Assembly (NCBI GenBank): GCA_964434945.1 | Contig: CAYSWZ010000221.1 | Span: 4,485-68,484, forward strand | DNA from: an uncultured bacterium | Lineage (GTDB): Bacteria > Eisenbacteria > RBG-16-71-46 | Direction: 5' to 3' | DNA: 64,000 nt | In this document: in pieces, positions 5,209 to 57,112 of the stretch | How positions within the stretch are numbered: the stretch's first letter is position 1 | Layout: each line of letters opens with the position of its first letter | Translations under genes and position numbers: made by a program | The notes under the pieces: model-generated | Told to the model about the DNA's origin: nothing | Seen by the model: only the letters and a program-made list of their open reading frames with translations | Databases searched by the model: none

Positions 5209-5540
5209 GGCATTCCCCCTGATGTCGAAGCCAGGATGTCGCACACGGAGGCGGGCCGTAGAGGCGCGCTCCCGACCGTCGGTGAGTCATCATTGCAAGT
5301 GGCGCGCCACCCCGCCGCATTGGGTCAGGCGGCCGCAAGTGAAAGCAATCACATGCGGCGCTCGCACGTTCGCGAAGGGTGTTCTCGCCCACGGCGTGCG
5401 TAGTGCAGTCCGAGGCATTGCGGGGCAATCGCGCTGGCGCCCATCGCCGCTGTTGCGCCCGCGGATTCGGTCGCCGCCGTGCCGCGCCTTAGCGCGCGGG
5501 GCGGGCCTGCGCTGCGCGCATGCGACGCGACTCAAAGGCT

Positions 5541-40786: not shown

Positions 40787-42220
40787 TTAGCGATTCGTTG
40801 CCGGGCCACCTTCCATCCCGTGCGGGGATCTCCCGGCGCGCATGAGCCTGTGCGCGGGCGTTTCCGGCAGCGGGAGCAGCCCGGGCGGGGGATCGTGGAG
40901 CACGTGCGGCCGATAGTCGGCAAACGAGAAGGTGGGACTCGTGGTGGCGGTGTGGCAGCCGCGGCAGGTGGCCTCCGCGACCGTGCTGCCTCCCTTCGCC
41001 CAGGCGTTGTGGTGCGAGCCCATGCCGTGGCAGGCCTCGCACTGCACATTCCCGAACCGCGCCCAGTCGTCGCCGGTCTGGAACCCCCCCGGGCTCACGA
41101 ACCCTGTCACGTGGCAGGAGAGGCACGCCGGCGTGGACTCCTTGTGCTGGTCCACCAACGTCCGCCAGGCGTGGGCATGGGCCGAGGTCTGCCACTGGGC
41201 GTACTCGTGTGCGTGGCACGGGATGCAATTGGACATCCCGAGATAGTGGTCCCCGCCGCGCCTGAACCTCGCCCCGCGTCCGTCGGCCGCGGAGCGCGAC
41301 CCGAGCTGGGCGTTGAGCGAGTCCTCGAAGGTCCTGACGCTCGCGGCCATCGCGGGCTCCTCGGGGACATCGGGCCCCAGCACGATGGTGCGGGCCTGGA
41401 TCTCCCGGACTGCGCGACCCGGGGCGCCATGGCGGTCGAGGAGCACGTCCGCCGCGCCCACCTGCCAGCCCTCGGACCCCCCGTAGACCGCAACCGTGTG
41501 ACCCAGCCGCACGCCGTGCGAGAGCGTGGCGACCCGACCGCCGCCCACCAGCAGGTCGATGCCGGGCACCCGGGCGGCAAGCCGCTCGCCGGCGTCCTGG
41601 CCGAGCTGTGAGAGGAGGATGATCACGACGGCTCCCCGTGCGCGGAGCGCCTCGATCGCGCGGCGAGCCGATTCCTCGACCGGCTCGATGCGCAGCGAGT
41701 CGCGCGCCGGCCCCAGGTCAGCGGTCTCCCCCACGAGGCCGAATACCCCGACCGTGTCGCCGCCGGCCTCGAGCACGCGCCAGCGCTCGAACGCAGGCTG
41801 GCCGCCTGCCGTACGCGACAGGTTCGCGCACACGAGCGGCACGCCGCACGAGCGAGCGTTCTCGCGCACGAACGCGTAGCCGAAGCGCAGCTCTCCGGGG
41901 CCCACTCCTGCGGCCTGCGTGCCCAGTCGGCGCATGGCCTGCAGCATGAAGGGCGCGGCCTCACGTTCGTCGTCGCTCGTCGGGAAGAACCCGCCCGCGT
42001 CCACGGCGAGGACGCGTCTTCGGACCGCGCGCACGCTGTCGAGGAACGTCGCGCGGCGGGCGAGCCCGCCCTTCGGCGTGTGGCAGCCGCACGGGCTCGT
42101 CTTCCCCGCCACGTCGTTCGTGGTGACCACGAGGAGCCGCGGATCGCCCCCGCCCCCGCAGCCCGCGAGGAGCGCGAGCCCGGCGATCACGACCGGTCGT
42201 CGCGCCTCAGACCACCCCAA
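40787..42220 (-). CDS. Lipoprotein: degenerate 5'-nucleotidase/metallophosphoesterase-like domain fused to a tetrahaem c-type cytochrome (Cys paralogue)
   Basis: Lipobox LALLAGCGG. TTNDVAGKTSPCGCHTPKGGLARR replaces the TND.HG motif. Four CxxCH motifs (CIPCH, CLSCH, CEACH, CRGCH). TTG start 42220 overlaps the upstream gene by 14 nt. Confidence 0.85.
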   Translation of the reverse strand: MGWSEARRPVVIAGLALLAGCGGGGDPRLLVVTTNDVAGKTSPCGCHTPKGGLARRATFLDSVRAVRRRVLAVDAGGFFPTSDDEREAAPFMLQAMRRLGTQAAGVGPGELRFGYAFVRENARSCGVPLVCANLSRTAGGQPAFERWRVLEAGGDTVGVFGLVGETADLGPARDSLRIEPVEESARRAIEALRARGAVVIILLSQLGQDAGERLAARVPGIDLLVGGGRVATLSHGVRLGHTVAVYGGSEGWQVGAADVLLDRHGAPGRAVREIQARTIVLGPDVPEEPAMAASVRTFEDSLNAQLGSRSAADGRGARFRRGGDHYLGMSNCIPCHAHEYAQWQTSAHAHAWRTLVDQHKESTPACLSCHVTGFVSPGGFQTGDDWARFGNVQCEACHGMGSHHNAWAKGGSTVAEATCRGCHTATTSPTFSFADYRPHVLHDPPPGLLPLPETPAHRLMRAGRSPHGMEGGPATNR

Positions 42221-44764: not shown

Positions 44765-45010
44765 TTCGGGTCGCTCCTGGGAAAGGGGGGTGGCGCGGGG
44801 AGCGGCCGGCGCGCCCCGTGAGTCGGTACGGGGGCCGCATGCTCTGGGCCGCGAAGAGGTTAGGAGCCACGCCGCGCGATGGCAAGTCGCGGGGGGGCAC
44901 GGACGCGAGCACGGACGCGAACGCCGTGGCCGCGGGCCGGGACAAGTCCTAGAGTGTCGGGCGGCCGCCGCGATCCATTTCGCACCTCACTCCCGTGAAG
45001 GAGTCCCGTC

Positions 45011-45514
45011 ATGCCCAGCAGCGAACTCGAGAAGTTCATCGGAACCTGGGAGCACGAATCGAAGAGCACCGAGCGCCTGCTCGCGGCGCTGCCGCCGACC
45101 CAGTACGACTTCCGTCCCGATCCCAAGGGCCGCTCGCTCGGCGAGCTGGCGTGGCACCTCGCCGAGATCGACGCGTTCATCTCGCGCGGCGTGGCGACGG
45201 GGACGTTCAACTTCGACGAGAAGATCCCCGGCCTCGAGCGCCCGCGGACCATCGCGGAGCTCCTGCCCGGCTACAAGCGCGTGCACGCGACGGCGGTCGC
45301 GACGATCAAGGGCCTGAAGCCCGATCATCTCGACAAGAGCACCTCGTTCATGGGCCGGCCGATGCGGAACGGGGACATTCTCTATGCCGTGCTCCTGTCC
45401 CACCTGATCCATCATCGCGGCCAGCTCGTGCTGCTGACGCGGCTGGCGGGCGGCACCCCCCCGGGAATGTACGGCCCGACGCGCGAGGAGATGGCGGCGA
45501 TGAAGAACAACTGA
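45011..45514 (+). CDS. DinB-family (DinB_2) four-helix-bundle protein
   Basis: LGELAWHLAE...LLSHLIHHRGQLVLLTRLAGG. RBS GAAGGAG. Confidence 0.88.
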   Translation: MPSSELEKFIGTWEHESKSTERLLAALPPTQYDFRPDPKGRSLGELAWHLAEIDAFISRGVATGTFNFDEKIPGLERPRTIAELLPGYKRVHATAVATIKGLKPDHLDKSTSFMGRPMRNGDILYAVLLSHLIHHRGQLVLLTRLAGGTPPGMYGPTREEMAAMKNN

Positions 45515-45540
45515 GCCCCGGCTCAGGTCGCGTCGCAAGC

Positions 45541-45578
45541 ACGCAGGCCCCCGCGGTTCGCGCCGCGGGGGCCTGCGT
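45541..45578. terminator. Bidirectional GC-rich hairpin terminator
   Basis: 16-bp perfect stem ACGCAGGCCCCCGCGG / CCGCGGGGGCCTGCGT with loop TTCGCG, between the convergent dinB-like and selenoprotein-candidate genes. Confidence 0.7.
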
Positions 45579-45605
45579 CACTTCAGGCTGCCGATCCTCG
45601 CGGGA

Positions 45606-47045
45606 TCAATGCCCGGCCTTCTTCGCCTCCATGGCCGGATTCGGAGGCAGCGGCGGCATGCTGGCCGGCGGGTGGTGCAGGATGTGCGGCTCGTACACGG
45701 CGAACGTGAACGGCGGGCTGTTCACCGTCGTGTGGCAGGTGATGCACGTGGCCTCGGTGATCTTTTGCGGCTGCGCCGGCATCGCCTCGTGCGTCGTGCC
45801 CATGCCGTGACACATCTCGCACTGCACGTTGGCGAGCTTCGGCGCGTCGTCACCCGTCTGGAATCCACCCGCCTCCTTGTAGCCGACGACGTGACACTTG
45901 ACGCACTCGGGCGTGGCTTCCTTCTTCGCGTCCACCAGCGTCTGCCAGGCTTTCGCGTGGCCGGTCGTCTTCCACTGATCGTACTCGGGCTGGTGGCAGC
46001 GCTGGCAGACCCCGGCGCCGACGTAGTGGTCCACCGACTGCTTCGCCGCCTGCCCCTCGCCGCCCGTCTGCAGCTGCGCCTGGGCCGCGCGCTCCTTCTC
46101 GAGCTTGCGCATCTTGTCGTTCCAGGCGTCGTTGAAGCTCTTGACGAGCGTGAGGATCTCCGGCTTCTCGCCCACCTCGGGTCCGAGCACGAACACGTCG
46201 TTCTCGCCCGTCTGCATCTTCTTCGCGGCGTCCAGCGTGACGATGGTGCGGCCCATGTTCTGGCCCTGCTCGCCGCCGTAGCACGCGACCGTGTTCTTGA
46301 TCATGCGGCCCTTCTGCAGCACGGGCACGTTACGGCCGGCGATCACCACGTCGATGCCGTCGACGCCGGTGACCAGGTCCTCGCTCTCGACCTTGCCGAG
46401 CTGCGACAGCAGCACGACCACGGTGGCGCCCTTCTTCCGCAGCTCCTCCACCGTGCGCTTGGCGGCGACCGCCGGATCCTCGAGCGTGAGCGAGTCGCGC
46501 GCCGGGCCCAGGTCCACCTTGTCGCTGGTGAGCCCGAACACGCCGACGTTGACGGTGCCCTTCTTCACGATCAGGTACGGCGGTACCAGCGTCTTCTTCG
46601 TCTGCTTGTCCCAGACGTTGGCGCACACCATGGGCAGCCGCGTGCGCTTCAACTGCGCCAGCAGCCAGCCGCGCCCGTACTTCAACTCCTTCTCGCTCAT
46701 GCCCGACGCGTCGGTGCCGAGCAGCACCATGGCATCCATGAGGAACCAGGCCTTGTCGCGGTAGAGGCTGTCGCCTTCCTCGGGGAAGAAGCCGCCGTTG
46801 TCCACGATCATGACCTGTCCGTACTGCTGCTTCAGGCTGTCCGCGAAACTCGCCCGCCGGGCGAGGCCCCCTTTGGGCGTGTGTCAACCACAGGGTTCGT
46901 TCTTGCCCTTGACGTCGGTGGTGGACAGGATGATGAGCTTGTTGGGCTCGAGCAGCTTGCCGGGGGCGGCGGCGCCGAGGAGCGCGACGGCGATGGCGAT
47001 GGCCACCGCGGCGGCGACGAGGCGCAACGGGAACGACTTCTTCAT
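45606..47045 (-). CDS. Exported degenerate phosphoesterase-tetrahaem cytochrome fusion with in-frame TGA (candidate selenocysteine, codon 54)
   Basis: Track ORFs 46884..47132 and 45606..46811 share one frame and are split only by TGA 46886..46884. The joined product MKKSFPLRLVAAAVAIAIAVALLGAAAPG...TTDVKGKNEPCG-U-HTPKGGLARRASF... is colinear with the 40787..42220 paralogue. Four CxxCH motifs (CQRCH, CVKCH, CEMCH, CITCH). AGGAG lies upstream of ATG 47045. Confidence 0.75.
46845..46886 (-). promoter_or_regulatory. Candidate bacterial SECIS: UGA plus downstream hairpin
   Basis: UGA, then the 18-nt spacer CACACGCCCAAAGGGGGC, then CUCGCCC-GGC-GGGCGAG (46865..46849). Possible G.U/G-C extension below the stem. 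Confidence 0.55.
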
Positions 47046-47258
47046 AGAGGGATCGAGTCTCCTGGTCGGGTGCGGCCCGCGAGCGGAAACGACTGGCGTG
47101 GACGGGTCGGGAGGCAAGTCTATGCACGCCACTGACGCGGGTCAAGGTCAGGTCCTCGTGTCGTTTGCGGTCATGTCGCCCCCTTCCGCTCTCGGCGTCC
47201 GGAACCCGATCACCCGGGGGAGCCCCCGGCCGCGGAGCGGACGGTCGCCAACGCGGCG

Positions 47259-47300
47259 CACCCGCCACCGTCGGGGGATCCCCAGCGACGGTGGCGGGTG
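47259..47300 (-). terminator. Hairpin terminator downstream of DUF3494 gene 1
   Basis: 15-bp perfect stem CACCCGCCACCGTCG / CGACGGTGGCGGGTG around GGGGATCCCCAG, 37 nt after the TAG stop at 47337. Confidence 0.65.
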
Positions 47301-47336
47301 CGAGCGTGAGTGCAGCGGCCTCGCGAGGCGCGGTGG

Positions 47337-48440
47337 CTACATCTTGTCCGGACGGTGCCTCTCCGGGACCGGCACCGAAGTCGCGGGACCAGCGGAAGGA
47401 ACGACGATGGCATTGCCGTCCAGCGTGACGGCGCCGATCCTCGCCAATGCCCGGCCGTTCAGCGTTGCGCCGGTATTCAGCGTGATCGACTGATCCGCCA
47501 TGATGGTGCCCTGGCATACGGACGTCGTGCCGAGGGTTGCCGAGCTGCCCACCTGCCAGAAGATGTTCGACGCCCTGGCGCCCCCGCTCAGGAAGACCGC
47601 CCGGCCGGACGTCAGCGTGAGCGTCGACGCCATCTGGAAGATGAACACGGCATTGGGATCACCCTGCGCGTCGAGCATCAGGTCGCCCGAGGAGACCGCC
47701 AGGGAGGACGTCGACTTGTAGAGCCCCGGACGCAGGTTCCGCCCGCCGAGGTTCCCCGAGATCAGGACGGGAGCCAGAGTCCGTCCCGCCGCGTCGGCAT
47801 AGGCCTTGGTCAGGTCCACGATGGCCTGAGCCGAGGCCGGATCTCCGGCGTGCATCGCACCGACCAGGATTCCGGGCGGGAAGCCGGTCACTGCCGTTCC
47901 CGGGCTGACACCGAGGTCGCCCGTCACGGTGGTCTCACCGGTGTTGGTGACCGTCGCGCCGGCGAGGACCGCGAAGGTGCCGGCGCTGCCGAGATCCGGG
48001 GCTGCCAGCATTCCCGCGGTCGGCAACGTGGTGAAGCCCCACACGACGTTGCCTGGCAGCGCATTGCCGGCGAGATCCTTCGCCCCCGTCGTGATCGTGG
48101 CGGTGTACGCCGTGCCGGCTGCGAGTGCGCTGGAGGGCGAGAACCTGGCGACCTCGGTCGACGCGTCATACGTGACGCCGCCCCGGACGGAAGTGCCATC
48201 CGGCCCGATGATGGCGAAGGTGGTCGTCGAAATGGTCTTTGCGTCCATCGCTTCGCTGAAGACTGCCGTCATGACCGCCGTGCTCGTGGCGCGATCCAGG
48301 GGATTCGTTGCGATCACGGACGGTGCGACGGTGTCGACCGTCATGCCCACGGGGCTCTTGTTGGCGGAGCTGCATCCGGACGCCACCCCGAGGACGACTG
48401 CCAGCGTCAGGGCTGCGAGACTGCGGTTGCGGAACTGCAT
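47337..48440 (-). CDS. Lipoprotein: Big_5 (SbsA-type Ig) domain plus DUF3494 ice-binding-like beta-solenoid
   Basis: ATG 48440 preceded by AGGAGG. Lipobox LGVASGC. APSVIATNPLDRATS...GAKDLAGNAL is the Ig domain. LGSAGTFAVLAGATVTNTGETTVTGDLGVSPGTAVTGFPPG...NIFWQVGSSATLG...GRALA are DUF3494 hallmarks. Confidence 0.9.
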   Translation of the reverse strand: MQFRNRSLAALTLAVVLGVASGCSSANKSPVGMTVDTVAPSVIATNPLDRATSTAVMTAVFSEAMDAKTISTTTFAIIGPDGTSVRGGVTYDASTEVARFSPSSALAAGTAYTATITTGAKDLAGNALPGNVVWGFTTLPTAGMLAAPDLGSAGTFAVLAGATVTNTGETTVTGDLGVSPGTAVTGFPPGILVGAMHAGDPASAQAIVDLTKAYADAAGRTLAPVLISGNLGGRNLRPGLYKSTSSLAVSSGDLMLDAQGDPNAVFIFQMASTLTLTSGRAVFLSGGARASNIFWQVGSSATLGTTSVCQGTIMADQSITLNTGATLNGRALARIGAVTLDGNAIVVPSAGPATSVPVPERHRPDKM

Positions 48441-48562
48441 TGAGATATCCTCCTGTTGGATCAGACATTCGGTCGAGTGCGTGCCCCCGGAACGGGAGGC
48501 GCCCTGGTCGAGGCACGTGGCGACGCACTTCATTCGGTGAACAGCGACACACGAGTAGCAAC

Positions 48563-48577
48563 GCAGGAACGGTGCCA
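48563..48577 (-). promoter_or_regulatory. Sigma-54 (-24/-12) promoter of DUF3494 gene 1
   Basis: Minus strand TGGCACCGTTCCTGC with GG-N10-GC spacing, about 120 nt upstream of the ATG. Confidence 0.75.
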
Positions 48578-48697
48578 CGCGTCGGAGGAGCCTCGAGAGA
48601 CTCCGCAGTTCGTTGCGAGCCAGCCAGCTGGCGAGATCGCCGTGCGTCGTGGAATGCGGAGGTTCGCAGCGGAACGGGCGGCCGGGGCGGACGGATG

Positions 48698-48730
48698 TGC
48701 AAACTCGCGCCGTGTTCTTCAAACGGCGCG
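48698..48730 (-). promoter_or_regulatory. Candidate enhancer (UAS) for DUF3494 gene 1
   Basis: Plus strand TGCAAAC and CTTCAAAC are spaced 20 bp apart. The second copy sits inside the 8-bp inverted repeat CGCGCCGT..ACGGCGCG. About 142 bp upstream of the -24 GG. Confidence 0.5.
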
Positions 48731-48832
48731 GGCGCATCGGGATCTGGATGGCGCCCTGAATAGCCGAACGCTCACCTCCACTCCGGCGTGATGCGAAGTC
48801 CGCCGGCTGGAGATGAGCGATGGGTTCGGCAT

Positions 48833-48847
48833 CGGGGTCTCGCCCCG
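48833..48847 (-). terminator. Possible weak hairpin after DUF3494 gene 2
   Basis: CGGGG-TCTCG-CCCCG, 19 nt after the stop at 48866. No U-tract. Confidence 0.3.
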
Positions 48848-48865
48848 AACAAGTGTCGTGAACGA

Positions 48866-49918
48866 CTACGGCGTGGGAAGCACGGCAGCGTTGCCCGCGA
48901 GTGAGACCGCGCCGATCCGCGCCAGCGCCCTGCCACTCAGCGTCGCCCCGGTGTTCAGCGTGATCGACTGGTCCGCCATGACGGTGCCCTGGAATGCGGA
49001 CGTCGTGCCGAAGGTCGCGGAGCTGCCGACCTGCCAGAAGATGTTGGAGGCCTTGGCGCCGCCGATCAGGATCACGGCCCGAGCCGGGGTCGTGGTGAGC
49101 GTCGAGGCCATCTGGAAGATGAACACGGCGTTCGCGTTGCCCTGGGCATCCAACGTCAGGTCACCCGAGGAGATCTCGAGCGACGAGCTGGACTTGTAGA
49201 GACCCGGAGCCAGCGTCATCCCGCCGAGATTCCCGGCGACCGTGACCGGTGCCAGGGTGCGACCCGCGGCGTCGTTGTAGGCGAGGGTCAGAGCGGCCAT
49301 GGCCGCTGCCGAGGTGGGATCCGCAGCATGCTGCACGCCGGTGAGGATGCCCGGCGGGAAGCCCGTCACCGCGCTGCCCGGGCTGACGCCGAGATCGCCC
49401 GTGAGCGTGGTCAGGCCGGTGTTGGTGACCGTCGAGCCGGCCAGGATCACGAAGCCGCCCGCTGCACCGAGATTCGGCGCCAGCATCCCGGACACCACGC
49501 CACCCTTCGTGAATCTCCACACACGATTGGCCGGCAACGCATTGCCGGCGAGGTCCTTCACGCCGGTCGTGAGCGTCGCCACGTAGGCCGAGCCATCCAC
49601 GAGAGCGGCGGTGGGCACGAAGCTCGCCACCTGGGTCGGGGCGTCATAAGAGATGGCGCCCGCGAGGGGCGCCCCGCCCGGCCCGCTGACGAAGAACGTC
49701 GTCGCCGTGAACGTCGAAGCGTTCATCGGCTTGCTGAACGACGCGTTGATCAGCGTGACGCTCGTGGCGCCATCGGCAGGGGTCGTGCTGGTCACCGTCG
49801 GCGCCACGGATGCGGGTGGGACGGGATTCGGGCTCGAATTGGATGTCATGCAGCCAGCCGCCACGACAACCAGTGCGGCCAGCGATAGAGCGACGAGACT
49901 GCGTGTCCGGAACTTCAT
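48866..49918 (-). CDS. Lipoprotein: Big_5 Ig domain plus DUF3494 ice-binding-like beta-solenoid (tandem paralogue)
   Basis: ATG 49918 preceded by AGGAGG in the same context as gene 1 (CAACAGGAGGAT.TCTC). Lipobox VVAAGC. Colinear with gene 1, with long near-identical stretches (AVFIFQMASTLT, ASNIFWQVGSSAT, MADQSITLNTGATL.GRALARIGAV). Confidence 0.9.
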   Translation of the reverse strand: MKFRTRSLVALSLAALVVVAAGCMTSNSSPNPVPPASVAPTVTSTTPADGATSVTLINASFSKPMNASTFTATTFFVSGPGGAPLAGAISYDAPTQVASFVPTAALVDGSAYVATLTTGVKDLAGNALPANRVWRFTKGGVVSGMLAPNLGAAGGFVILAGSTVTNTGLTTLTGDLGVSPGSAVTGFPPGILTGVQHAADPTSAAAMAALTLAYNDAAGRTLAPVTVAGNLGGMTLAPGLYKSSSSLEISSGDLTLDAQGNANAVFIFQMASTLTTTPARAVILIGGAKASNIFWQVGSSATFGTTSAFQGTVMADQSITLNTGATLSGRALARIGAVSLAGNAAVLPTP

Positions 49919-50030
49919 CGAGAGATCCTCCTGTTGCGTTCGTTGGTGTCGCGTGCAGGCTGCAGGCGACGTTGTCTCGAGTCCTTCGAAGTGAACGGCG
50001 CCGCACGGTGCGACACACCCGGGGAGCAAC

Positions 50031-50045
50031 GCACGAACAGGGCCA
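50031..50045 (-). promoter_or_regulatory. Sigma-54 promoter of DUF3494 gene 2
   Basis: Minus strand TGGCCCTGTTCGTGC with GG-N10-GC spacing, about 110 nt upstream of the ATG. Confidence 0.7.
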
Positions 50046-50161
50046 TTCGTCGGAGGAATCGCGCGGCACGCCCTAGGTGCCTGCGGCAGCGCACGCTAGC
50101 CCCGTCGCTCGACGCCGCGGCGGGCGATCCATCGGGTGTCACTCCCGCGCAGAGAAGGACG

Positions 50162-50192
50162 GAAGTTCAAGATCGCACCCTGTTCTTCAATC
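50162..50192 (-). promoter_or_regulatory. Candidate enhancer (UAS) for DUF3494 gene 2
   Basis: Plus strand GTTCAAG and CTTCAAT are spaced 20 bp apart, about 142 bp upstream of the -24 GG. Confidence 0.5.
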
Positions 50193-50340
50193 CCGGCATG
50201 CATGCGCAGGATCCAGATGCTGACCGTGAACGTCACCGGAACCGGACATCTGGATCCGCCGCGAGCGAGCGATGCGGCACGCTCGGCGGGGCGCCGTGGT
50301 CAACCGTGTCTGCACCGGTGACACACACTCAATGCGAAAT

Positions 50341-50384
50341 GGAGAGAGGGCGGACCGAACAACGATTCGGTCCGCCCTCTCTCC
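50341..50384 (-). terminator. Very strong hairpin terminator downstream of DUF3494 gene 3
   Basis: 19-bp perfect stem GGAGAGAGGGCGGACCGAA / TTCGGTCCGCCCTCTCTCC with loop CAACGA, 50 nt after the stop at 50436. Confidence 0.7.
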
Positions 50385-50435
50385 ACGCTCGGCTCGAGCG
50401 TGCGCGACCTGAGTGCGGCCAGAAGCCGCGTTGCC

Positions 50436-51188
50436 CTACCGATACATCGACTTGACCTTGCCCCAGGTCGACTTGGTCGTGGGTGTTCCCTTGTCGTTGG
50501 TTCCAACAATGGTGTTCGTGTCCATGGACACGGCGCCGCTCTGCGCCAGGGCCCGACCCGCCACGGTGGCGTTGGTATTGAGCGTGATGCTCGCGGACGC
50601 GAGCACATTGCCGAGCGTCGTGGAACCGATGCCGAGCGTCGCGGAACTGCCGACCTGCCACCAGACGTGCCGCCCCTGAGCGCCATTGATCACGGTCACG
50701 GAAGAGCCGTTGGCGACCGTCAGCGTGCTTCCCATCTGGAAGACGAACACCGCGGAGGTGTCGCCTTGAGCGTCAAGCGTCAGGGCCCCGGTCAATCCCG
50801 CCGAAGTCGCGAAGCAGTACACCCCGGGCACGAGCGTCTTGCCTCCCAGGTCCACGCCGGTCATCGTGACGGAGCAGGGCATGCCGGCCAGGAAGCCGTA
50901 CATCGTGCCGAGATCCGCCATCGCCTGAGCTGCTGCGGCATCACCGGCGTGAACCGTCCCGGGGCTGGGCTGTCCGAGGGGAAGTCCCGTGATCGCCGTG
51001 CCGGGGCTCACGCCAACGTCGCCGCTGATGGTCGTCGCGCCGGTATTGGTGATCGTCGAGCCGGCCAGGACCGCATAGCCCGCCGCAGTACCCAGGCCGT
51101 TCTGGGCGAACGCGAACGAGGGCAGGAACAAGAGCGCGGTGAGTGCGGCGCCGGTGACGAGAGCCGAGTGCTTGTAGCGGTACTTCAT
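50436..51188 (-). CDS. Exported DUF3494 ice-binding-like protein (no Ig domain)
   Basis: ATG 51188; signal peptide MKYRYKHSALVTGAALTALLFLPSFAFA. LGTAAGYAVLAGSTITNTGATTISGDVGVSPGTAITG...HVWWQVGSSATLG...GRALA. Confidence 0.9.
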   Translation of the reverse strand: MKYRYKHSALVTGAALTALLFLPSFAFAQNGLGTAAGYAVLAGSTITNTGATTISGDVGVSPGTAITGLPLGQPSPGTVHAGDAAAAQAMADLGTMYGFLAGMPCSVTMTGVDLGGKTLVPGVYCFATSAGLTGALTLDAQGDTSAVFVFQMGSTLTVANGSSVTVINGAQGRHVWWQVGSSATLGIGSTTLGNVLASASITLNTNATVAGRALAQSGAVSMDTNTIVGTNDKGTPTTKSTWGKVKSMYR

Positions 51189-51289
51189 GTTGCACCCCCA
51201 CATCCGTGAAGTGGACCAGCGACTCGCCGCGAACCCTTCTCGGGTCTCCGCGTTGTCCTGGGATCCTGCTTCTTGCTCGTCCCGGTAAC

Positions 51290-51304
51290 GCACGCGTGAT
51301 GCCA
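51290..51304 (-). promoter_or_regulatory. Sigma-54 promoter of DUF3494 gene 3
   Basis: Minus strand TGGCATCACGCGTGC with GG-N10-GC spacing, about 100 nt upstream of the ATG. Confidence 0.7.
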
Positions 51305-51421
51305 CGTTCGACCCGGATCGTGTCCGCTCCCCGAACCCGTTACGAAGGTGGGCGTTGACCGCCGGCGCGATCGGTTCGGGGGACGTGCGAGTGGGCGCCT
51401 GCCGGCGATCCACGAGACCAC

Positions 51422-51451
51422 TTCCTTCAAAGCCGCGCAGTTCTTACAACG
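51422..51451 (-). promoter_or_regulatory. Candidate enhancer (UAS) for DUF3494 gene 3
   Basis: Plus strand CCTTCAAAG and TTCTTACAAC are about 19 bp apart, the second flanked by CCGCG..CGCGG. About 141 bp upstream of the -24 GG and just downstream of the kinase stop. Confidence 0.45.
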
Positions 51452-51462
51452 CGGCGTTGGGG

Positions 51463-53343
51463 CTAGGACGCCACTCCGTCCACGCCGAGACCCCGGCGTC
51501 TCGCGAGGCTGCCCACGACCGCGATCAGCTCGTTGGGATTCGCGGGCTTGGACAGGTACATCTGGAAGCCCGCGGAGAGGATGGTCACGCGGTCGTCGAT
51601 CTTGGCGAACGCGGTCAGCGCCACCGCCGGGGTCAGGCCGCCTCGCGCCGGCGAGCGGAGCCGGATCTTCCGGATGAGCGAGTATCCGTCTTCGCCGGGC
51701 ATGGCGATGTCCGAGACGAGAACGTCCGGCTGCCAGTCGTCGAACACGATGAGCGCTGCCGCGGCCGAATCCGCGACACGGGCCTCCGCGCCGCAAGAGT
51801 CGAACAACACGCCGAGCGCCTCGCTCGAACTCGGTTCGTCGTCGACGACGAGCACGCGAACCCCGTCCAGTCGCCCGAGGTGGACGGAAGCGAGCGCATC
51901 CCCCGCGATCGGGTGCCGTCGCGAGGGGATACCACCCTCTCGAGTCGAGGGCAGAAGCGGGAACTTGACCGTGAACTTGGCGCCGTGACCGGGGCCATCG
52001 CTGTACCCGGTGATCTCGCCGCCGTGCAGTTCGACGATATGGCGAACGATGGAGAGGCCCAGGCCGAGTCCCCCGTGGCGTCGCATCGTCCCGCCGGTGG
52101 CCTGCCGGAAGGGCTCGAAGACGTGCGGCAGGAACTCGGGATCGATGCCGATGCCGGTATCGCTGACCGCGATCTCCACGTGCGACTCCGCCCGTTGCAG
52201 CACCACCTGCACCCTGCCGCCGCGGGGGGTGAACTTGATGGCATTGGAGATCAGGTTCGACATCACCTGCTTGAGACGTTCCGAGTCCCCCGAGATCGGC
52301 CCTGCCCGCTCGTCGAGAACGAGCTGCAGGGCGATCTGCTTGGCGGAACTCGCCGGGGTCTGCGATTCGGCTGCTTCCTTGATCACCGGCCCGAGCTCGA
52401 CGGGCCTCACGTCGAGCCGGAACTTCCCGGACACGACCCTCGACACATCGACCAGATCGTCGATGAGCTGGGTCTGGGACATAACGTTGCGCTCGATGAC
52501 CTCCAGTGCCCGGGCGGTCTTCGCCTCGTCGAGCGTTCCGCTTCGAAGCAGCTGGGTCCAGGTGAGGATCGGCGCGAGGGGGTTGCGGAGCTCGTGCGAC
52601 ACGGTCGCCAGGAACTGGTCCTTCAGGCGCCCGACCGCCTCCACTTCGGAAAGCGATTCCATCGCCTGGCTCTGCCCGCTCTCGGCCAGTGTGCGAGCGG
52701 TCGTCTGCTCACCATAGCTTCGGGTCAGCGCGATGCTGATGAAGATGCAGAACAACACCAACAATACGATGTTCGCGACGGAAAACGAGATCAACAGGGT
52801 CTCGGAGCGGCTGACCTCCGCGCGGGCGGGAGCGAGGTTTCGGATTCGCGCCGACTCGCGGTGCGCCACCAGCGCCGCGAGCGCCAGCTCGTACTGGGCG
52901 CTGCGCGTCAGCACGGCCTCGGGATAGAGCGCCCCGGAAGAACCCTTGCCGGCACCTGCCGCCAGCGCGTTCGCGAACGCGTCCTCGTGCGCCTGCTCCG
53001 CGGCCAGGACGCTGACCAGAAGCGCCCGGCCCTCGGGGTCGGTGATCTGCCCCTGCAGGCGCTCGACAAGATCGCGCGCCCTTGCGCTACCCGTTCGTGC
53101 CGCGGGGGTGAACTCCTTCCCACCGCTGAGAAGGCAGGCGCGCACGTCGGCGATGTTCTTGAGCCCGATGAGCTGCAGTGCCCTCGCGTCCGCGAGATCC
53201 TGGCCTTCCCCGGAGGTGACCTTCGTCATGTTCGAGATCAGGGAGCGCGAGGCGAACAGGGACACGACGGTCGTGAGCAGGACCAGCACACAGATCAGGA
53301 TCACGCCGGTGGTGAGTTTTGTTTGAAAAGACCATGTCGACAC
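51463..53343 (-). CDS. Hybrid sensor histidine kinase (periplasmic helical sensor, HisKA, HATPase_c, C-terminal receiver)
   Basis: Two TM spans flank a helical domain of about 150 aa. H-box FLATVSHELRNPL, N-box NLISNAIKFT, G-boxes DTGIGI and GGLGLGLSIV. Receiver VLVVDDEP...VLVSDIAMPGEDG...LTA...SKP. Confidence 0.92.
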   Translation of the reverse strand: MSTWSFQTKLTTGVILICVLVLLTTVVSLFASRSLISNMTKVTSGEGQDLADARALQLIGLKNIADVRACLLSGGKEFTPAARTGSARARDLVERLQGQITDPEGRALLVSVLAAEQAHEDAFANALAAGAGKGSSGALYPEAVLTRSAQYELALAALVAHRESARIRNLAPARAEVSRSETLLISFSVANIVLLVLFCIFISIALTRSYGEQTTARTLAESGQSQAMESLSEVEAVGRLKDQFLATVSHELRNPLAPILTWTQLLRSGTLDEAKTARALEVIERNVMSQTQLIDDLVDVSRVVSGKFRLDVRPVELGPVIKEAAESQTPASSAKQIALQLVLDERAGPISGDSERLKQVMSNLISNAIKFTPRGGRVQVVLQRAESHVEIAVSDTGIGIDPEFLPHVFEPFRQATGGTMRRHGGLGLGLSIVRHIVELHGGEITGYSDGPGHGAKFTVKFPLLPSTREGGIPSRRHPIAGDALASVHLGRLDGVRVLVVDDEPSSSEALGVLFDSCGAEARVADSAAAALIVFDDWQPDVLVSDIAMPGEDGYSLIRKIRLRSPARGGLTPAVALTAFAKIDDRVTILSAGFQMYLSKPANPNELIAVVGSLARRRGLGVDGVAS

Positions 53344-53443
53344 GGTGTGACCCCGCTCTGGAAAGGCGATTCGAGGATCGAACGGTGGCGTTTTCCAACC
53401 GATGGACCGACGCTGTCCTCACGACTTGCATGCGGAGCTTGCG

Positions 53444-53460
53444 CTCCTGGGGCCCAGGAG
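53444..53460 (-). terminator. Short hairpin after the glycine-zipper lipoprotein gene
   Basis: CTCCTGG-GGC-CCAGGAG, 29 nt after the stop at 53489. Confidence 0.4.
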
Positions 53461-53488
53461 TCGAATCCGCCCGACTCGGGGCCACGGC

Positions 53489-54112
53489 CTAGTTCACGGT
53501 GAAGCTCATCAGCGTGCCGGACTTCAATACGACCTGATACCCCTTGGAACTGGCCACCACGCCCGTGGCGGCTGCCCCGCCGATGAGCCCTCCCGCGGCG
53601 GCATGCCTGCCGTCGCCCACGACGTTGCCAATGAGTGCGCCGGCCAGGACCCCACCGGCGATGGCTCCAAGGTTACGGGCGCGAGTGGAACCGGCGACGA
53701 CCGATTCGCCATTCGCCGCGATCGACTCGTCCCGGCCGTTCACTCGGATGTTGCGGACCGCGAGGTCCAGCATGGCGCGGGCGCCGCGCTGTGCACCCGT
53801 GGCTCCGGTGACCACGCCATTCACCGGGCTGCCGGCGGGAATCACACCTCCATGCCTCGTCACCACGTTGTTCGCCACCGTTCCATGCCAGGCATCCCCG
53901 ACGGAGGCGGTCTCGGAGGAGATGGCGCCACCCAGCGTCACGTTGAACATCGAACCCGACGACAGGAAGCGTGACGGGGAGCTGCGGGACTGCCCCGGCT
54001 GGGAGGTCCCCGCCTGACCGCCATCGCTCTCATCCCTGCAGCCGATCGAGAGCCCGAGTGTCATGACGAGGCCGATTGCTGTCAGCAGCGCGGTGCGTGT
54101 GCGGGTTGTCAT
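53489..54112 (-). CDS. Lipoprotein with a C-terminal glycine-zipper region
   Basis: ATG 54112 preceded by AGGAGG. Lipobox LGLSIGC. Glycine zipper NLGAIAGGVLAGALIGNVVGDGRHAAAGGLIGGAAATG. Confidence 0.8.
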   Translation of the reverse strand: MTTRTRTALLTAIGLVMTLGLSIGCRDESDGGQAGTSQPGQSRSSPSRFLSSGSMFNVTLGGAISSETASVGDAWHGTVANNVVTRHGGVIPAGSPVNGVVTGATGAQRGARAMLDLAVRNIRVNGRDESIAANGESVVAGSTRARNLGAIAGGVLAGALIGNVVGDGRHAAAGGLIGGAAATGVVASSKGYQVVLKSGTLMSFTVN

Positions 54113-54186
54113 CTGGTGTGCTCCTCCTGGCTGGTCACATCCGCCCCGACCTGATTTCAGGCTCGACGGTCGCTCGAGACACACCC

Positions 54187-54201
54187 GCACGAACGGTGCC
54201 A
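54187..54201 (-). promoter_or_regulatory. Sigma-54 promoter of the glycine-zipper lipoprotein gene
   Basis: Minus strand TGGCACCGTTCGTGC with GG-N10-GC spacing, about 75 nt upstream of the ATG. It differs from the DUF3494 gene 1 promoter at one position. Confidence 0.75.
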
Positions 54202-54307
54202 GCGGTTCGGATCGCCCGCCCGGGCACGCCAATCCGTTGTGGAGGTCCGGGCTAGCCGGGTTTCGCGTGGATTTCGAGCGGGACCCGCGGCCGGGATGCG
54301 CAGGAAG

Positions 54308-54339
54308 GAACTTCAAGCGCAGGGAAGGATCTACAAGTC
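54308..54339 (-). promoter_or_regulatory. Candidate enhancer (UAS) for the lipoprotein gene
   Basis: Plus strand ACTTCAAG and TCTACAAG are spaced 20 bp apart, about 132 bp upstream of the -24 GG and immediately 3' of the activator gene stop. Confidence 0.45.
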
Positions 54340-54345
54340 CCGGGC

Positions 54346-55668
54346 TCAGACCTCGGAGTAGAGGTGAAGCCGGTTGTAGAGCGTCTTGAGGCTGATGCCC
54401 AGGATCTGCGCCGCCCGCTTCTTGTCGCCGCCGCACTGCTCGAGCGTGCCGAGGATGAGCTTGCGTTCGGATTCCTCGAGCGAACCTCCGACCTCGGTGG
54501 GGGGCGGCGCGGGGTCGGGCCCCGTGGGCAGATCCGACAGTTCGATCACCTTGTCGCTCATGATGAAGGCCCGATGCAATTCGTTCCTCAGCTCGCGCAC
54601 GTTGCCCCGCCACGGGCACTTCCGGATGCGATCGCGCGCAGCGGCACTCAGCTTCTTGCTCGTGCCGTGGGTCCCGTTGAGCGACTCCAGGAAATGCGTG
54701 GCCAGCAGGATTCCGTCCTCCTCACGCTCACGAAGCGGCGGCAGGACGATCGGGAATACGTTGATCCGGTAGTAGAGATCCTCCCGCAGTTTGCCGTCCC
54801 GGACGGCCTCCAATGGCACCCGGTTCGTGGCCGTGATCAGGCGCACGTCCACCGGAACCGGCACGTCACCGCCGACGCGAACCACGGAGCCGGACTCGAG
54901 CACGCGCAGCAACTTGACCTGCAGCTCGATCGGCATCTCCGTGATCTCGTCGAGGAACAAGGTGCCCCCGCCGGCTCTCTCGAAGCAGCCGCGTCGGAGC
55001 TGCGTCGCACCCGTGAAGCTCCCTCGCTCGTGTCCGAAGAGTTCGCTCTCGATCAGGGTCAGCGGGATCGCGCCACAGTTGACTGGAATGAACGGCCTCT
55101 GCCGACGACTGCTGAGCTCGAAGATCGTCTGCGCGACGAGTTCCTTGCCGGTCCCGCTCTCACCCGAAACGAAGACCGTCGCGTCCGTGGGAGCGACCTT
55201 GACCATGAGGTCGTACACCTTCTGCATCGCGGGAGACACTCCGATCAACCGGCCCAGGCGGCCCAGCTTCCGCAACTCGCCCCGCAGGCTGCCCACCTCT
55301 TCCTTGAGCGACCGCAGCCGAAGCACGTTCGCGAGCACGGCCTTCAGCCGCCGGTTGTCGAGTGGCTTGGTGAGGTAGTCGAGCGCGCCGAGCCGAAGCG
55401 CCTCGATCGCGGAGTCGACCGTGGCCGTACCCGAAACCATGATCACGTCGGCACTCGACGTCTCCTTGATCTCACGGAGCAGTGCGATCCCGTCTCCATC
55501 GGGCAACCTCAGATCGACCAGGACGAGGTCGGCGGCGCCGTTCGCGAGATGCGCACGAGCCTCCTGGAGCGAGTGGGCGCTCGTGACGTCGAACCCCTCC
55601 TGCGTGGCGACCTCGGCCACGCCCTCGAGGAAGTCGGAATCGTCGTCGACGAACAGTGCACGCAGCAT
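54346..55668 (-). CDS. Sigma-54-dependent response regulator (NtrC family bacterial enhancer-binding protein)
   Basis: Receiver (FVDDDSD...LVLVDLRLPDGDG...TKP). AAA+ domain with Walker A GESGTGKE, the sigma-54 contact loop ESELFGHERGSFTGA (GAFTGA variant) and RELRN. C-terminal Fis-type HTH AAQILGISLKTLYNRL. ATG 55668. Confidence 0.93.
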   Translation of the reverse strand: MLRALFVDDDSDFLEGVAEVATQEGFDVTSAHSLQEARAHLANGAADLVLVDLRLPDGDGIALLREIKETSSADVIMVSGTATVDSAIEALRLGALDYLTKPLDNRRLKAVLANVLRLRSLKEEVGSLRGELRKLGRLGRLIGVSPAMQKVYDLMVKVAPTDATVFVSGESGTGKELVAQTIFELSSRRQRPFIPVNCGAIPLTLIESELFGHERGSFTGATQLRRGCFERAGGGTLFLDEITEMPIELQVKLLRVLESGSVVRVGGDVPVPVDVRLITATNRVPLEAVRDGKLREDLYYRINVFPIVLPPLREREEDGILLATHFLESLNGTHGTSKKLSAAARDRIRKCPWRGNVRELRNELHRAFIMSDKVIELSDLPTGPDPAPPPTEVGGSLEESERKLILGTLEQCGGDKKRAAQILGISLKTLYNRLHLYSEV

Positions 55669-55882
55669 CGAGATGGCCCTCGGCGACGCCGAACCGCGCC
55701 GCGGGAAGATCCCGCGAACGCAACGGGATCCAGGTCGCTCCCCGGGGAGCAAGGCGCAACGCCGGCCCGGTGCTCCTGGAAGTCAGGCCAGCCCGATCGC
55801 GCCCGGATGCTCACCCTACCACTTCGGGCGCCGTCCACCGCATAGTTGAGCGGCGCGCGGGCCTCGGCGCGCGAAACCCGCC

Positions 55883-57112
55883 TCAGGCCCGATCGCCTTC
55901 CACGAGCCGCACCGTGTCGCGGGCGATGAGCAACTCCTCGTTCGTCGGGATGACGAGCACGGCCGATCGCGACGTCGCAGCCGAGATGCGCGCTTCCCGG
56001 CCGATCGCCGCGGCGTTCTCCGCCTCGTCGATCTCCAGGCCGAGCCAGCCCAGTCCCGCCAGCGTGCGCGCACGGATCACCGGAGCGTTCTCGCCGATGC
56101 CGCCGGTGAAGATGAGCGCGTCCAGGCCGCCGAGCGCGGCAGCGTAGGCGCCGACGTACTTGCGGAGCCGGTAGCAGAACACGTCGATCGCCAGCTTCGC
56201 GCGCTCGTGCCCCTTCGCCGCCTCGGCGAGGATCTCGCGCATGTCGCCGGAGATGCCCGAGAGCCCGTAGAGCCCCGAATGCTTGTTGAGCATGGCCGTG
56301 AGCTGGTGCTCGTCGAGGTCCTCGGCGTGGAGGATGTGGAAGACGAGCGACGGATCGAGGTCGCCCGCGCGCGTGCCCATGAGCAGCCCTTCGAGCGGCG
56401 TGAAGCCCATGCTCGTGTCGATCGATCGCCCGTGGTCGATCGCGCACACGCTCGCGCCCGCCCCGAGGTGGCACGTGATGAGCCGTGTCTCCTCGCGGGG
56501 ACGGCCGAGCAGCGCCTCGCTGCGCCACGCGACGTAACGGTGCGACGTGCCGTGAAAACCGTAGCGCCGGATCGCGTGCCGCGTGTAGAGCGCATACGGC
56601 AGGCCGTAGAGGTACGCGTGCGGCGGCATGGACTGGTGGAACGCGGTGTCGAAGACCGCGACGTGCGGCACGTTGCCGAGGACCGCCCGCGCGGCACGAA
56701 GTCCCCGCAGGTTGTGCGGGTTGTGGAGGGGCGCCAGCTCGCAGCACTGCTCGATGCTTCGTTCGACGTCGGCATCGATCTCCACCGATGCCGAGAAGCG
56801 CTCGCCCCCGTGCACGACGCGATGGCCCACCGCGGCGATCTCCGCCGGGTCGCCGACGACCCCGCGCTCGGGATCGCACAGCAGGCGAAGAATGTCCGCG
56901 ACCGCTCCCCGGTGCTCGAGGATCTCGTTCGCCTCGCTCGTGCGCGGCTCGTCGCCACGCTGGAACGAGTGCACGGCGCTGCCGCTCCCGATCCGCTCGA
57001 CCGCGCCGCGCGCGAGCACGCGGTCGTCGTTCCGGGCGATGCGCGCGCGCGACGTCTCGACGAGCTGGTACTTGACCGAGCTCGAACCGCAGTTGAGCAC
57101 GAGCACCCTCAC
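55883..57112 (-). CDS. ackA: Acetate kinase
   Basis: VLVLNCGSSSVKYQL, GHRVVHGG, FDTAFHQSMP, RYGFHGTSH and FTGGIGEN. GTG 57112..57110 overlaps the hbd TGA (GTGA). Confidence 0.93.
   Translation of the reverse strand: MRVLVLNCGSSSVKYQLVETSRARIARNDDRVLARGAVERIGSGSAVHSFQRGDEPRTSEANEILEHRGAVADILRLLCDPERGVVGDPAEIAAVGHRVVHGGERFSASVEIDADVERSIEQCCELAPLHNPHNLRGLRAARAVLGNVPHVAVFDTAFHQSMPPHAYLYGLPYALYTRHAIRRYGFHGTSHRYVAWRSEALLGRPREETRLITCHLGAGASVCAIDHGRSIDTSMGFTPLEGLLMGTRAGDLDPSLVFHILHAEDLDEHQLTAMLNKHSGLYGLSGISGDMREILAEAAKGHERAKLAIDVFCYRLRKYVGAYAAALGGLDALIFTGGIGENAPVIRARTLAGLGWLGLEIDEAENAAAIGREARISAATSRSAVLVIPTNEELLIARDTVRLVEGDRA

Follow-up and report, generated by a model that had tools for sequence, protein, structure and literature searches.

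A predicted sigma-54 regulon of Candidatus Eisenbacteria linking DUF3494 proteins and a VirB10-like lipoprotein to an NtrC-type activator and a hybrid kinase

A gene cluster of an uncultured bacterium of the phylum Candidatus Eisenbacteria is described here, located on the minus strand of a 64,000-nucleotide stretch of contig CAYSWZ010000221.1 (assembly GCA_964434945.1, positions 4,485 to 68,484; the whole stretch is called the window, and positions are counted from its first letter). In this cluster, genes for three DUF3494 proteins and a lipoprotein, each preceded by a predicted sigma-54 promoter, are found with the genes for an NtrC-type activator and a hybrid sensor kinase. Taken together with related loci, the cluster very likely represents a sigma-54 regulon that is conserved within Candidatus Eisenbacteria and controlled by a single two-component pair.

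Genes and promoter architecture of the locus

The activator gene (54346..55668, minus strand, like all genes and sites of the cluster) encodes an NtrC-family response regulator, i.e. a bacterial enhancer-binding protein, in which Pfam recognizes the REC (PF00072, E = 3e-25), Sigma54_activat (PF00158, E = 2.6e-67) and HTH_8 (PF02954, E = 3.6e-12) domains, in agreement with an earlier note on this DNA, which had also pointed to ESELFGHERGSFTGA within it. The translation contains DDD8-10, the phospho-acceptor D52, K101, the Walker A motif GESGTGKE, LFLDEI and GSFTGA, the last being the sigma-54 contact loop, which differs from GAFTGA by an A to S exchange and retains F and T. This form is kept in all orthologues (as IESELFGHERGSFTGATQxRRG in those of L005, L081, L082, L083 and L088, where L-numbers denote the loci used for comparison), and unrelated activators at the same loci carry GAFTGA. 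By NCBIfam, the protein is an equivalog of no named regulator, its best scores staying far below the curated cut-offs (AtoC, 384 bits for a cut-off of 714; NtrC, 373 bits for a cut-off of 559), and no other activator gene is present in the window. The hybrid sensor histidine kinase (51463..53343), likewise recognized earlier, is predicted to consist of a first transmembrane helix, a periplasmic region of approximately 150 residues, a second transmembrane helix and, by Pfam, HisKA, HATPase_c and REC domains; no Pfam family matches its sensor region. The REC, Walker and H-box residues of the activator/kinase pair are intact.

The proposed targets are the genes of a lipoprotein (53489..54112; lipobox LSIGC) and of three proteins that do match the DUF3494 family, as had been claimed (PF11999, E from 1e-60 to 3e-66; 205, 219 and 223 bits for a cut-off of 28.7). 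DUF3494-1 (50436..51188; E = 1.3e-60) is a predicted Sec-secreted, single-domain Ice_binding protein of 250 residues, while DUF3494-2 (48866..49918; 350 residues; lipobox VAAGC) and DUF3494-3 (47337..48440; 367 residues) are probable lipoproteins in which Pfam finds a Big_5 Ig-like domain besides the Ice_binding domain. The four genes had been described as consecutive, which is incorrect: the kinase gene separates the lipoprotein gene from the first DUF3494 gene, and is not itself preceded by a promoter element of the type found at the other four.

These predicted sigma-54 elements, of the -24/-12 type and of the pattern TGGC-N8-TGC, are all present as 15-mers on the minus strand where they had been reported, namely TGGCACCGTTCGTGC (54187..54201) for the lipoprotein gene, TGGCATCACGCGTGC (51290..51304) for DUF3494-1, TGGCCCTGTTCGTGC (50031..50045) for DUF3494-2 and TGGCACCGTTCCTGC (48563..48577) for DUF3494-3. 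All are intergenic and oriented toward the downstream gene, and from their ends to the ATGs at 54112, 51188, 49918 and 48440 there are 74, 101, 112 and 122 nt, respectively, close to the distances first given; the bases that follow are GGG for the lipoprotein gene and GTT for the other three, also as stated, and the -15 base is G or C, not T.

Alignment of the four upstream regions revealed, in addition, a tandem repeat, TTGAAG-N14-TTGAAS, the second half-site of which starts 115-126 nt before each TGGC and which is a candidate upstream activating sequence (UAS). The predicted copies read TTGTAG-N14-TTGAAG for the lipoprotein promoter (54311..54336; 115 nt to TGGC), TTGTAA-N13-TTGAAG for DUF3494-1 (51425..51449; 126 nt; conserved in L085), TTGAAG-N14-TTGAAC for DUF3494-2 (50165..50190; 125 nt) and TTGAAG-N14-TTGCAC for DUF3494-3 (48697..48722; 125 nt). 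On both strands of the 64 kb, the repeat pattern is matched exactly four times, always in these four upstream regions, for 0.08 matches expected, a count which is post hoc and partly circular, the pattern having been derived from the same four sites, so that confirmation in other genomes was needed. An unconstrained motif search of the interval between UAS and promoter yielded a third box, CCRCAASGAYCTRG, which 19 of the 21 lineage promoters carry at -38 to -42 relative to TGGC, often with GCTAGC before it. In the window, this -41 box is represented by CCACAACGGATTGG (54229..54242) at the lipoprotein promoter and by TCGTAACGGGTTCG (51332..51345), CCGCAGGCACCTAG (50073..50086) and TCGCAACGAACTGC (48605..48618) at the promoters of DUF3494-1, DUF3494-2 and DUF3494-3, respectively; its position and its CAA-N4-CTG core would fit, speculatively, an IHF-type bending site.

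Recurrence of the promoter architecture in related genomes

A scan of species-representative genomes with a DUF3494 alignment identified Candidatus Eisenbacteria metagenome-assembled genomes (L001-L005 and L023) as the closest relatives. Eighty DUF3494 loci, 74 of them from outside Eisenbacteria, were compared with flanks of up to 10 kb on each side, along with eight contigs that carry homologues of the lipoprotein, seven of which are informative (L081-L083 and L085-L088), L084 being a short duplicate of the L083 site. The three-part architecture of UAS, -41 box and -24/-12 element recurs at 13 other Candidatus Eisenbacteria loci, beside orthologous regulators, with promoter conservation upstream of orthologues listed for L001-L005, L023, L081-L083, L085, L087 and L088. 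All 21 lineage sites retain the GG-N10-GC spacing, and the distances from UAS to TGGC fall into two classes, of 123-126 bp (14 sites) and 111-116 bp (seven sites), which are one helical turn (approximately 10 bp) apart, as would be expected for looping-dependent activation. Composite sites amount to 22 in 284 kb of Eisenbacteria sequence, as compared with 13 lower-scoring matches in 1.08 Mb of the other DUF3494 loci.

The composite of UAS and promoter precedes DUF3494 orthologues in L001, L002, L003, L005, L081, where the Ice_binding gene concerned adjoins the activator gene, and, three times, L085. The latter, whose lipoprotein is 76% identical by BLASTP, is the closest relative and keeps the order seen in the window, i.e. 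lipoprotein, kinase and three Ice_binding genes, each of these three with its own UAS and promoter and the DUF3494-1 orthologue carrying TGGCATCACTCGTGC. L005 has one UAS flanked by a divergent pair of GG-N10-GC elements, TGGCACGGAACTGGC and TGGCATCAATCTGGC, which face a DUF3494 gene on one side and a DoxX and lipoprotein-homologue pair on the other, the orthologous activator (69% identical) and kinase being found 7-9 kb away. The composite precedes an operon for a secreted repeat protein and a DUF3494 protein in L004, and an orthologous secreted-protein gene in L023, where a separate element, TGGCAGCGTTCGTGC, precedes the DUF3494 gene and no such UAS accompanies it.

The secreted repeat protein of these two loci (L004 7968-8705 and L023 9230-9691, both on the plus strand) is encoded just upstream of the DUF3494 gene, behind the same UAS and predicted sigma-54 promoter, and is made up of one or two repeats of approximately 90 residues (…YDVFRY…YYAY…RWY…SRE…IPR..WR.YP..W) followed by a Gly/His/Arg-rich tail; it has no match in Pfam or NCBIfam. 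Homologues of this and of other regulon members (an outer-membrane protein (OMP) beta-barrel, DUF5670, DUF6627 and hyp216) were not found in the window, which contains one weak FlgD_ig-like match (9932-10186).

Among the lipoprotein contigs, the composite precedes an operon for the OMP and the lipoprotein in L081, L082, L083, L087 and L088, and in L083 the kinase gene also carries a composite of its own. A core of activator, lipoprotein, with or without the OMP beta-barrel, and hybrid kinase is seen in five of the seven contigs; one of the five, L085, is cut off upstream, as the contig ends just before the lipoprotein gene, with the kinase gene present. L081, L082, L083 and L088 contain orthologues of both regulators together with the lipoprotein gene, and the kinase orthologue adjoins the latter in these four and in L085. 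The conserved core of the predicted regulon consists of the activator, kinase and lipoprotein genes, usually with the OMP beta-barrel gene, and the DUF3494 genes are subclade-specific recruits. In L083 (13497-13700) and L087 (12707-12907), the OMP-lipoprotein-DUF5670 operon is followed, at a distance of a few kb, by a cold-shock-domain (CSD) gene on the opposite strand; it has no UAS or promoter of this type, and this association with a cold-related gene may be coincidental.

Sigma-54 control as a general property of DUF3494 genes was considered and discarded, since most of the 74 non-Eisenbacteria loci lack such an element and an activator gene is present in the flanks of only six of the 80 loci. 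A second, independent sigma-54/DUF3494 link is that of an Archangium sp. metagenome-assembled genome (L009 5644-8519, minus strand), in the Myxococcota, where a sigma-54 activator gene is followed by a sigma-54-like element, TTGGCCTGGAACGTGCT, placed 69 nt before the ATG of a DUF3494 lipoprotein gene. There, however, the activator is of the XylR/DmpR type (XylR_N and V4R, no REC), no kinase is present, the upstream sequence differs and the DUF3494 protein is divergent.

The four sites were also scored against the background of the window, as the earlier note had proposed, with an outcome that depends on what is scored. In this DNA of 70% GC, TGGC-N8-TGC taken by itself does not exceed chance (20 matches for 13.65 +/- 3.9 expected, a number reached by eight of 100 shuffles). 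A generic sigma-54 matrix ranked three of the sites 7, 8 and 16 and the fourth outside the top 40; generic scoring, by a regular expression and our own approximation of the published consensus, does not discriminate at such a GC content and was replaced by a 22-nt lineage matrix trained on 15 promoter sites from other genomes, with the window and L085 excluded. With the latter, the sites of DUF3494-3, DUF3494-2, the lipoprotein gene and DUF3494-1 rank 1, 2, 3 and 6 of 128,000 positions, with 26.5, 21.2, 19.9 and 11.8 bits, respectively, the best other position having 12.6 bits. The significance of the sites derives from position and conservation, and not from the score of the core. The best match to the generic consensus in the window is a different sequence, TGGCGCGCCACTTGCA (5294-5309, minus strand; 14.2 bits), intergenic and upstream of the open reading frame 5244-4606; it has no TTGAAG-type UAS and, if real, would depend on a different activator.

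That the four elements are chance matches in GC-rich DNA, the genes being transcribed from ordinary sigma-70 promoters, would agree with the near-expected count of the bare pattern and with the many coding-region positions to which the generic matrix gives equal or higher scores, but is a practically negligible possibility in view of the intergenic position and correct orientation of the sites, the UAS at a fixed distance and the -41 box at each of them, the conservation of the composite at orthologous positions in 13 other loci, the high ranks obtained with a matrix from other genomes and the lack of any sigma-70-like promoter in a search upstream of the four genes. It is also very improbable that TGGCAC-N5-GTGC(C) is the near-palindromic operator of a dimeric transcription factor, with the TTGAAG repeats belonging to a different regulator. 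The invariant positions are T-GG and GC at the exact N10 spacing; the base that follows GTGC may be G, A, C or T, so that the palindrome is not maintained even if some copies, such as GGCACCGATCGTGCC in L083, are palindromic; and the two divergent copies of L005 keep GG-N10-GC and are not palindromic. The spacer CCGTTC is conserved beyond the usual needs of sigma-54 recognition, as an operator would explain, but the orientation to the downstream gene is constant, and the conserved neighbour is an activator of a type that has no recognized role apart from sigma-54.

Transcription units and protein products

Each target gene had also been credited with its own hairpin terminator, and the four genes with being independent units under shared control. 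A scan for T-tract terminators at the gene ends gave nothing, no hairpin being followed by a canonical T-tract, and terminators were judged, instead, from fold z-scores relative to shuffles. On this basis, hairpins were confirmed for the three DUF3494 genes: a 20-bp perfect hairpin, probably a terminator, follows DUF3494-1 (50341..50384; z = -7.25), and others follow DUF3494-2 (48770..48818; z = -3.75) and DUF3494-3 (47257..47302; z = -3.82). For the lipoprotein gene, the hairpin is no better than those of shuffled sequences (z = -1.4). The shared control is supported by the conservation of the composite beside orthologous regulators; the lipoprotein and kinase genes may form one transcription unit and not two. 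The kinase gene, too, is probably transcribed from the lipoprotein promoter, which would give positive feedback: the intervening hairpin is weak, no promoter is found between the two genes and, in L083, the kinase gene has a composite of its own.

The 5′ leaders of the two Big_5-DUF3494 genes (48441-48562 and 49919-50030, minus strand) share the conserved stretches GTGTGTCGC…, GTGCGGCGCCATTCAC… and CAACAGGAGGATATCTC, and leaders in L002 and L003 are approximately 255 nt long, which may indicate a post-transcriptional element; an Rfam scan of 45000-56500 found no recognized RNA element in the leaders.

The DUF3494 family had been called functionally opaque, a description that does not suit proteins so similar to a characterized ice-binding protein, EfcIBP (PDB 6EIO), of a bacterial symbiont of Euplotes focardii. 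DUF3494-3, its close homologue, aligns with it over 212 residues (E = 8e-73, 249 bits), and other solved ice-binding proteins are matched too (5UYT, E = 7e-43; 7BWX, E = 2e-39; others). By homology, the DUF3494 proteins of the window would be ice-binding proteins, although the score for the NCBIfam equivalog IBP_CFB is below the cut-off (138 vs 400). EfcIBP shares with them the DUF3494 beta-solenoid domain and secretion, and differs from two of them, which add a lipobox and the Big_5 Ig-like domain; it reportedly inhibits ice recrystallization, and no description of its regulation was found in the literature. A parallel in layout (lipobox, Ig-like domains and C-terminal DUF3494) is SfIBP_1 (PDB 6BG8), the proposed 'ice adhesin' of Shewanella frigidimarina, which, however, contains tandem Big_2 domains in the place of one Big_5 and is less similar in sequence (E = 5e-23). 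SfIBP_1 has a lipoprotein-type signal, surface anchoring has been proposed for it, and no sigma-54 or two-component system is known to be linked to it. In metagenome-assembled genomes of Thermoplasmata archaea (L010, L015, L016 and L036), DUF3494 proteins are 57-71% identical to those of Eisenbacteria, consistent with inter-domain horizontal transfer or with binning errors.

The remaining target had been described as a glycine-zipper lipoprotein; the lipobox supports the second part of the name, and the first is a reading of its GxxxG-rich segment. The protein matches no Pfam or NCBIfam family, even at E <= 5, and has 1192 homologues, of which the named ones are from Eisenbacteria. In the AlphaFold model, a beta domain (pLDDT approximately 90) is interrupted by the glycine-zipper segment, modelled with low confidence. 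Foldseek matches this beta domain to the C-terminal domain of VirB10/TrwE/ComB10 (E = 2e-5, probability 1.0, TM-score approximately 0.43), and all 23 PDB matches with E < 0.01 are VirB10-type components of type IV secretion systems (VirB10, TrwE, ComB10, CagY and others). The glycine-zipper segment is inserted where VirB10 carries the antenna helices that span the outer membrane, and the combination of a VirB10-like beta domain with a glycine zipper at the antenna position suggests an oligomeric protein that would insert into the outer membrane. Unlike VirB10, the lipoprotein is small and stands alone, with no type IV secretion genes nearby. A SlyB-like identity, the label that one source gives to a homologue, was rejected, finding no support in Pfam, NCBIfam or the fold search.

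According to PMC6075780, QseE, QseG and QseF of E. coli form a system of kinase, lipoprotein and sigma-54 activator. By analogy, the lipoprotein might be a periplasmic or outer-membrane co-sensor of the kinase, as QseG is for QseE, and not an effector, a role that gene order would suit: in the window, L081, L082 and L085, the lipoprotein gene immediately precedes the kinase gene, the intervening hairpin of the window not being significant, and in L083 and L088 the lipoprotein gene closely follows the kinase gene, with the OMP gene in between. Such a role is nonetheless unlikely, given that the likeness to QseG is one of gene order while the model resembles the C-terminal domain of VirB10, that the regulon counts the lipoprotein gene among its targets, usually together with the OMP gene and behind a UAS and promoter of its own, and that neither regulator gene was called in the stretches fetched around the lipoprotein genes of L086, where the stretch is cut short upstream, and L087.

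Beyond the cluster, at 45606-47045 (minus strand), a metallophosphoesterase-like protein with a C-terminal multihaem cytochrome c554 domain is encoded with an in-frame TGA at 46883-46885 (EPCG-TGA-HTPKGG), which aligns exactly with a Cys of the paralogue at 40787-42220 (minus strand; SPCGCHTPKGG) and is followed, 19 nt downstream, by a 7-bp GC-rich hairpin. This TGA is a candidate selenocysteine codon, the alternative being a pseudogene.

Proposed circuit, its signal and its significance

From the promoter architecture, its conservation and the domain identities, we infer a circuit with the following steps. The membrane-bound hybrid kinase would sense a periplasmic or envelope signal through its helical sensor region and control phosphorylation of the NtrC-type activator, which would bind the tandem TTGAAG-N14-TTGAAS enhancer, approximately 115 or 125 bp ahead of each -24 element. 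A bend at the -41 box, i.e. at an IHF-like position, would let the activator contact the sigma-54 holoenzyme at TGGCAC-N5-sTGC, and ATP hydrolysis would then open the promoter. The first promoter would drive the VirB10-like glycine-zipper lipoprotein of the outer membrane, probably with read-through to the kinase gene and, therefore, positive feedback, and the other three would drive one secreted and two lipid-anchored, Ig-domain-containing DUF3494 proteins.

Such a scheme follows NtrB/NtrC-type regulons (glnAp2, nifH, ZraSR, QseE/QseG/QseF) in the REC, AAA+ and HTH_8 composition of the activator, the adjacent sensor kinase, the tandem putative activator sites some 100-150 bp upstream, the box at the usual position of an IHF bend and the GG-N10-GC core; with QseEGF, it also shares a lipoprotein gene between or beside those for the kinase and the activator. 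It departs from them in the GSFTGA loop, in a hybrid kinase without HPt, in an activator without a named equivalog, in the direct TTGAAG repeat, where the NtrC UAS is a palindrome, in the GTGC/CTGC of the -12 region, where TTGC is found in the former, and in the targets, which are ice-binding-type proteins and a VirB10-like lipoprotein, in a host that belongs to an uncultured phylum.

Several points weigh against this circuit, or against parts of it. The rpoN gene (searched for through the RpoN box) was found neither in the window nor in any fetched locus, the remaining genome being outside the search, and we infer its presence from the conserved sigma-54 activators. The hybrid kinase lacks an HPt domain, nor is an HPt gene found nearby, which makes direct phosphotransfer from kinase to activator uncertain. 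The -24/-12 core by itself is inseparable from the background in GC-rich DNA, and the DUF3494-1 site has a low score even with the lineage matrix. The 21 sites include several paralogous or orthologous copies (those of DUF3494-2 and DUF3494-3, and those of the window and L085, the intergenic DNA of which is 86% identical), so that the independent observations are fewer than 21. The activator is connected to the TTGAAG repeat through co-occurrence. Ice binding, assigned here by homology, is not predictable from sequence, and most relatives (L082, L083 and L086-L088) have a regulon without a DUF3494 gene; the signal, therefore, need not involve ice.

The output of the circuit is most likely a stress-induced remodelling of the cell surface which, in this subclade, would include the display and secretion of ice-binding proteins under cold, freezing or related envelope stress. 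As the signal, a generic envelope or surface stress is at least as likely as ice itself, because the regulons of many relatives lack DUF3494 genes and have other genes in their place. It is a serious, if less than even, possibility that the circuit is real and unrelated to ice, being a general envelope or surface response (e.g. to desiccation or osmotic stress, or in biofilm formation) in which the DUF3494/Big_5 proteins act as adhesins or surface beta-solenoids. In the relatives without DUF3494 genes, those behind the promoters or beside the core encode the OMP beta-barrel, an LPXTG protein with a sortase, FlgD_ig, DUF5670, DUF6627, YtxH and PEP-CTERM-type proteins, and habitats in which freezing never occurs are the source of many DUF3494 proteins. 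Set against this are the very close similarity of the DUF3494 domains of the window to EfcIBP and the layout shared with SfIBP_1, as well as the isolate names of several related genomes, which suggest glacier-stream, Antarctic or permafrost sources, a weak indication drawn from names only; the literature on a link between Eisenbacteria and glacier habitats was uninformative. A dedicated freeze- or ice-responsive pathway, in which the periplasmic helical sensor would detect cold, freezing or envelope stress and, through the GSFTGA activator and sigma-54, cause both the secretion and surface display of ice-binding proteins and the production of a VirB10-like lipoprotein that stabilizes the outer membrane, is doubtful; if true, bacterial ice-binding proteins would have their first circuit defined from sensor to promoter.

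In the literature, no paper was found that links DUF3494 or ice-binding proteins to sigma-54, the sole paper found with both 'ice-binding protein' and RpoN being unrelated. A large cross-phylum survey of sigma-54 regulons of 2025 mentions neither ice-binding proteins nor Eisenbacteria, and a study of the genomic context of ice-binding proteins from the Arctic mentions nothing beyond ice-binding genes in tandem and, in some cases, LytTR response regulators. The earlier note did not recognize the system as a described one, and the set of targets and the lineage are indeed new; the mechanism is a textbook one, and the value of the finding lies in those targets and that lineage, with a conventional mode of control and no new regulatory principle.

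The regulatory control of bacterial ice-binding proteins is essentially unknown, and the locus would provide the first predicted circuit for it, in a concrete form that comprises a sensor kinase, an activator, an enhancer sequence and four predicted promoters. The lipoprotein defines a family of some 1200 members with a VirB10-like predicted fold unconnected to type IV secretion, and Candidatus Eisenbacteria, an uncultured phylum, would gain from this locus its first information at the level of a regulon.

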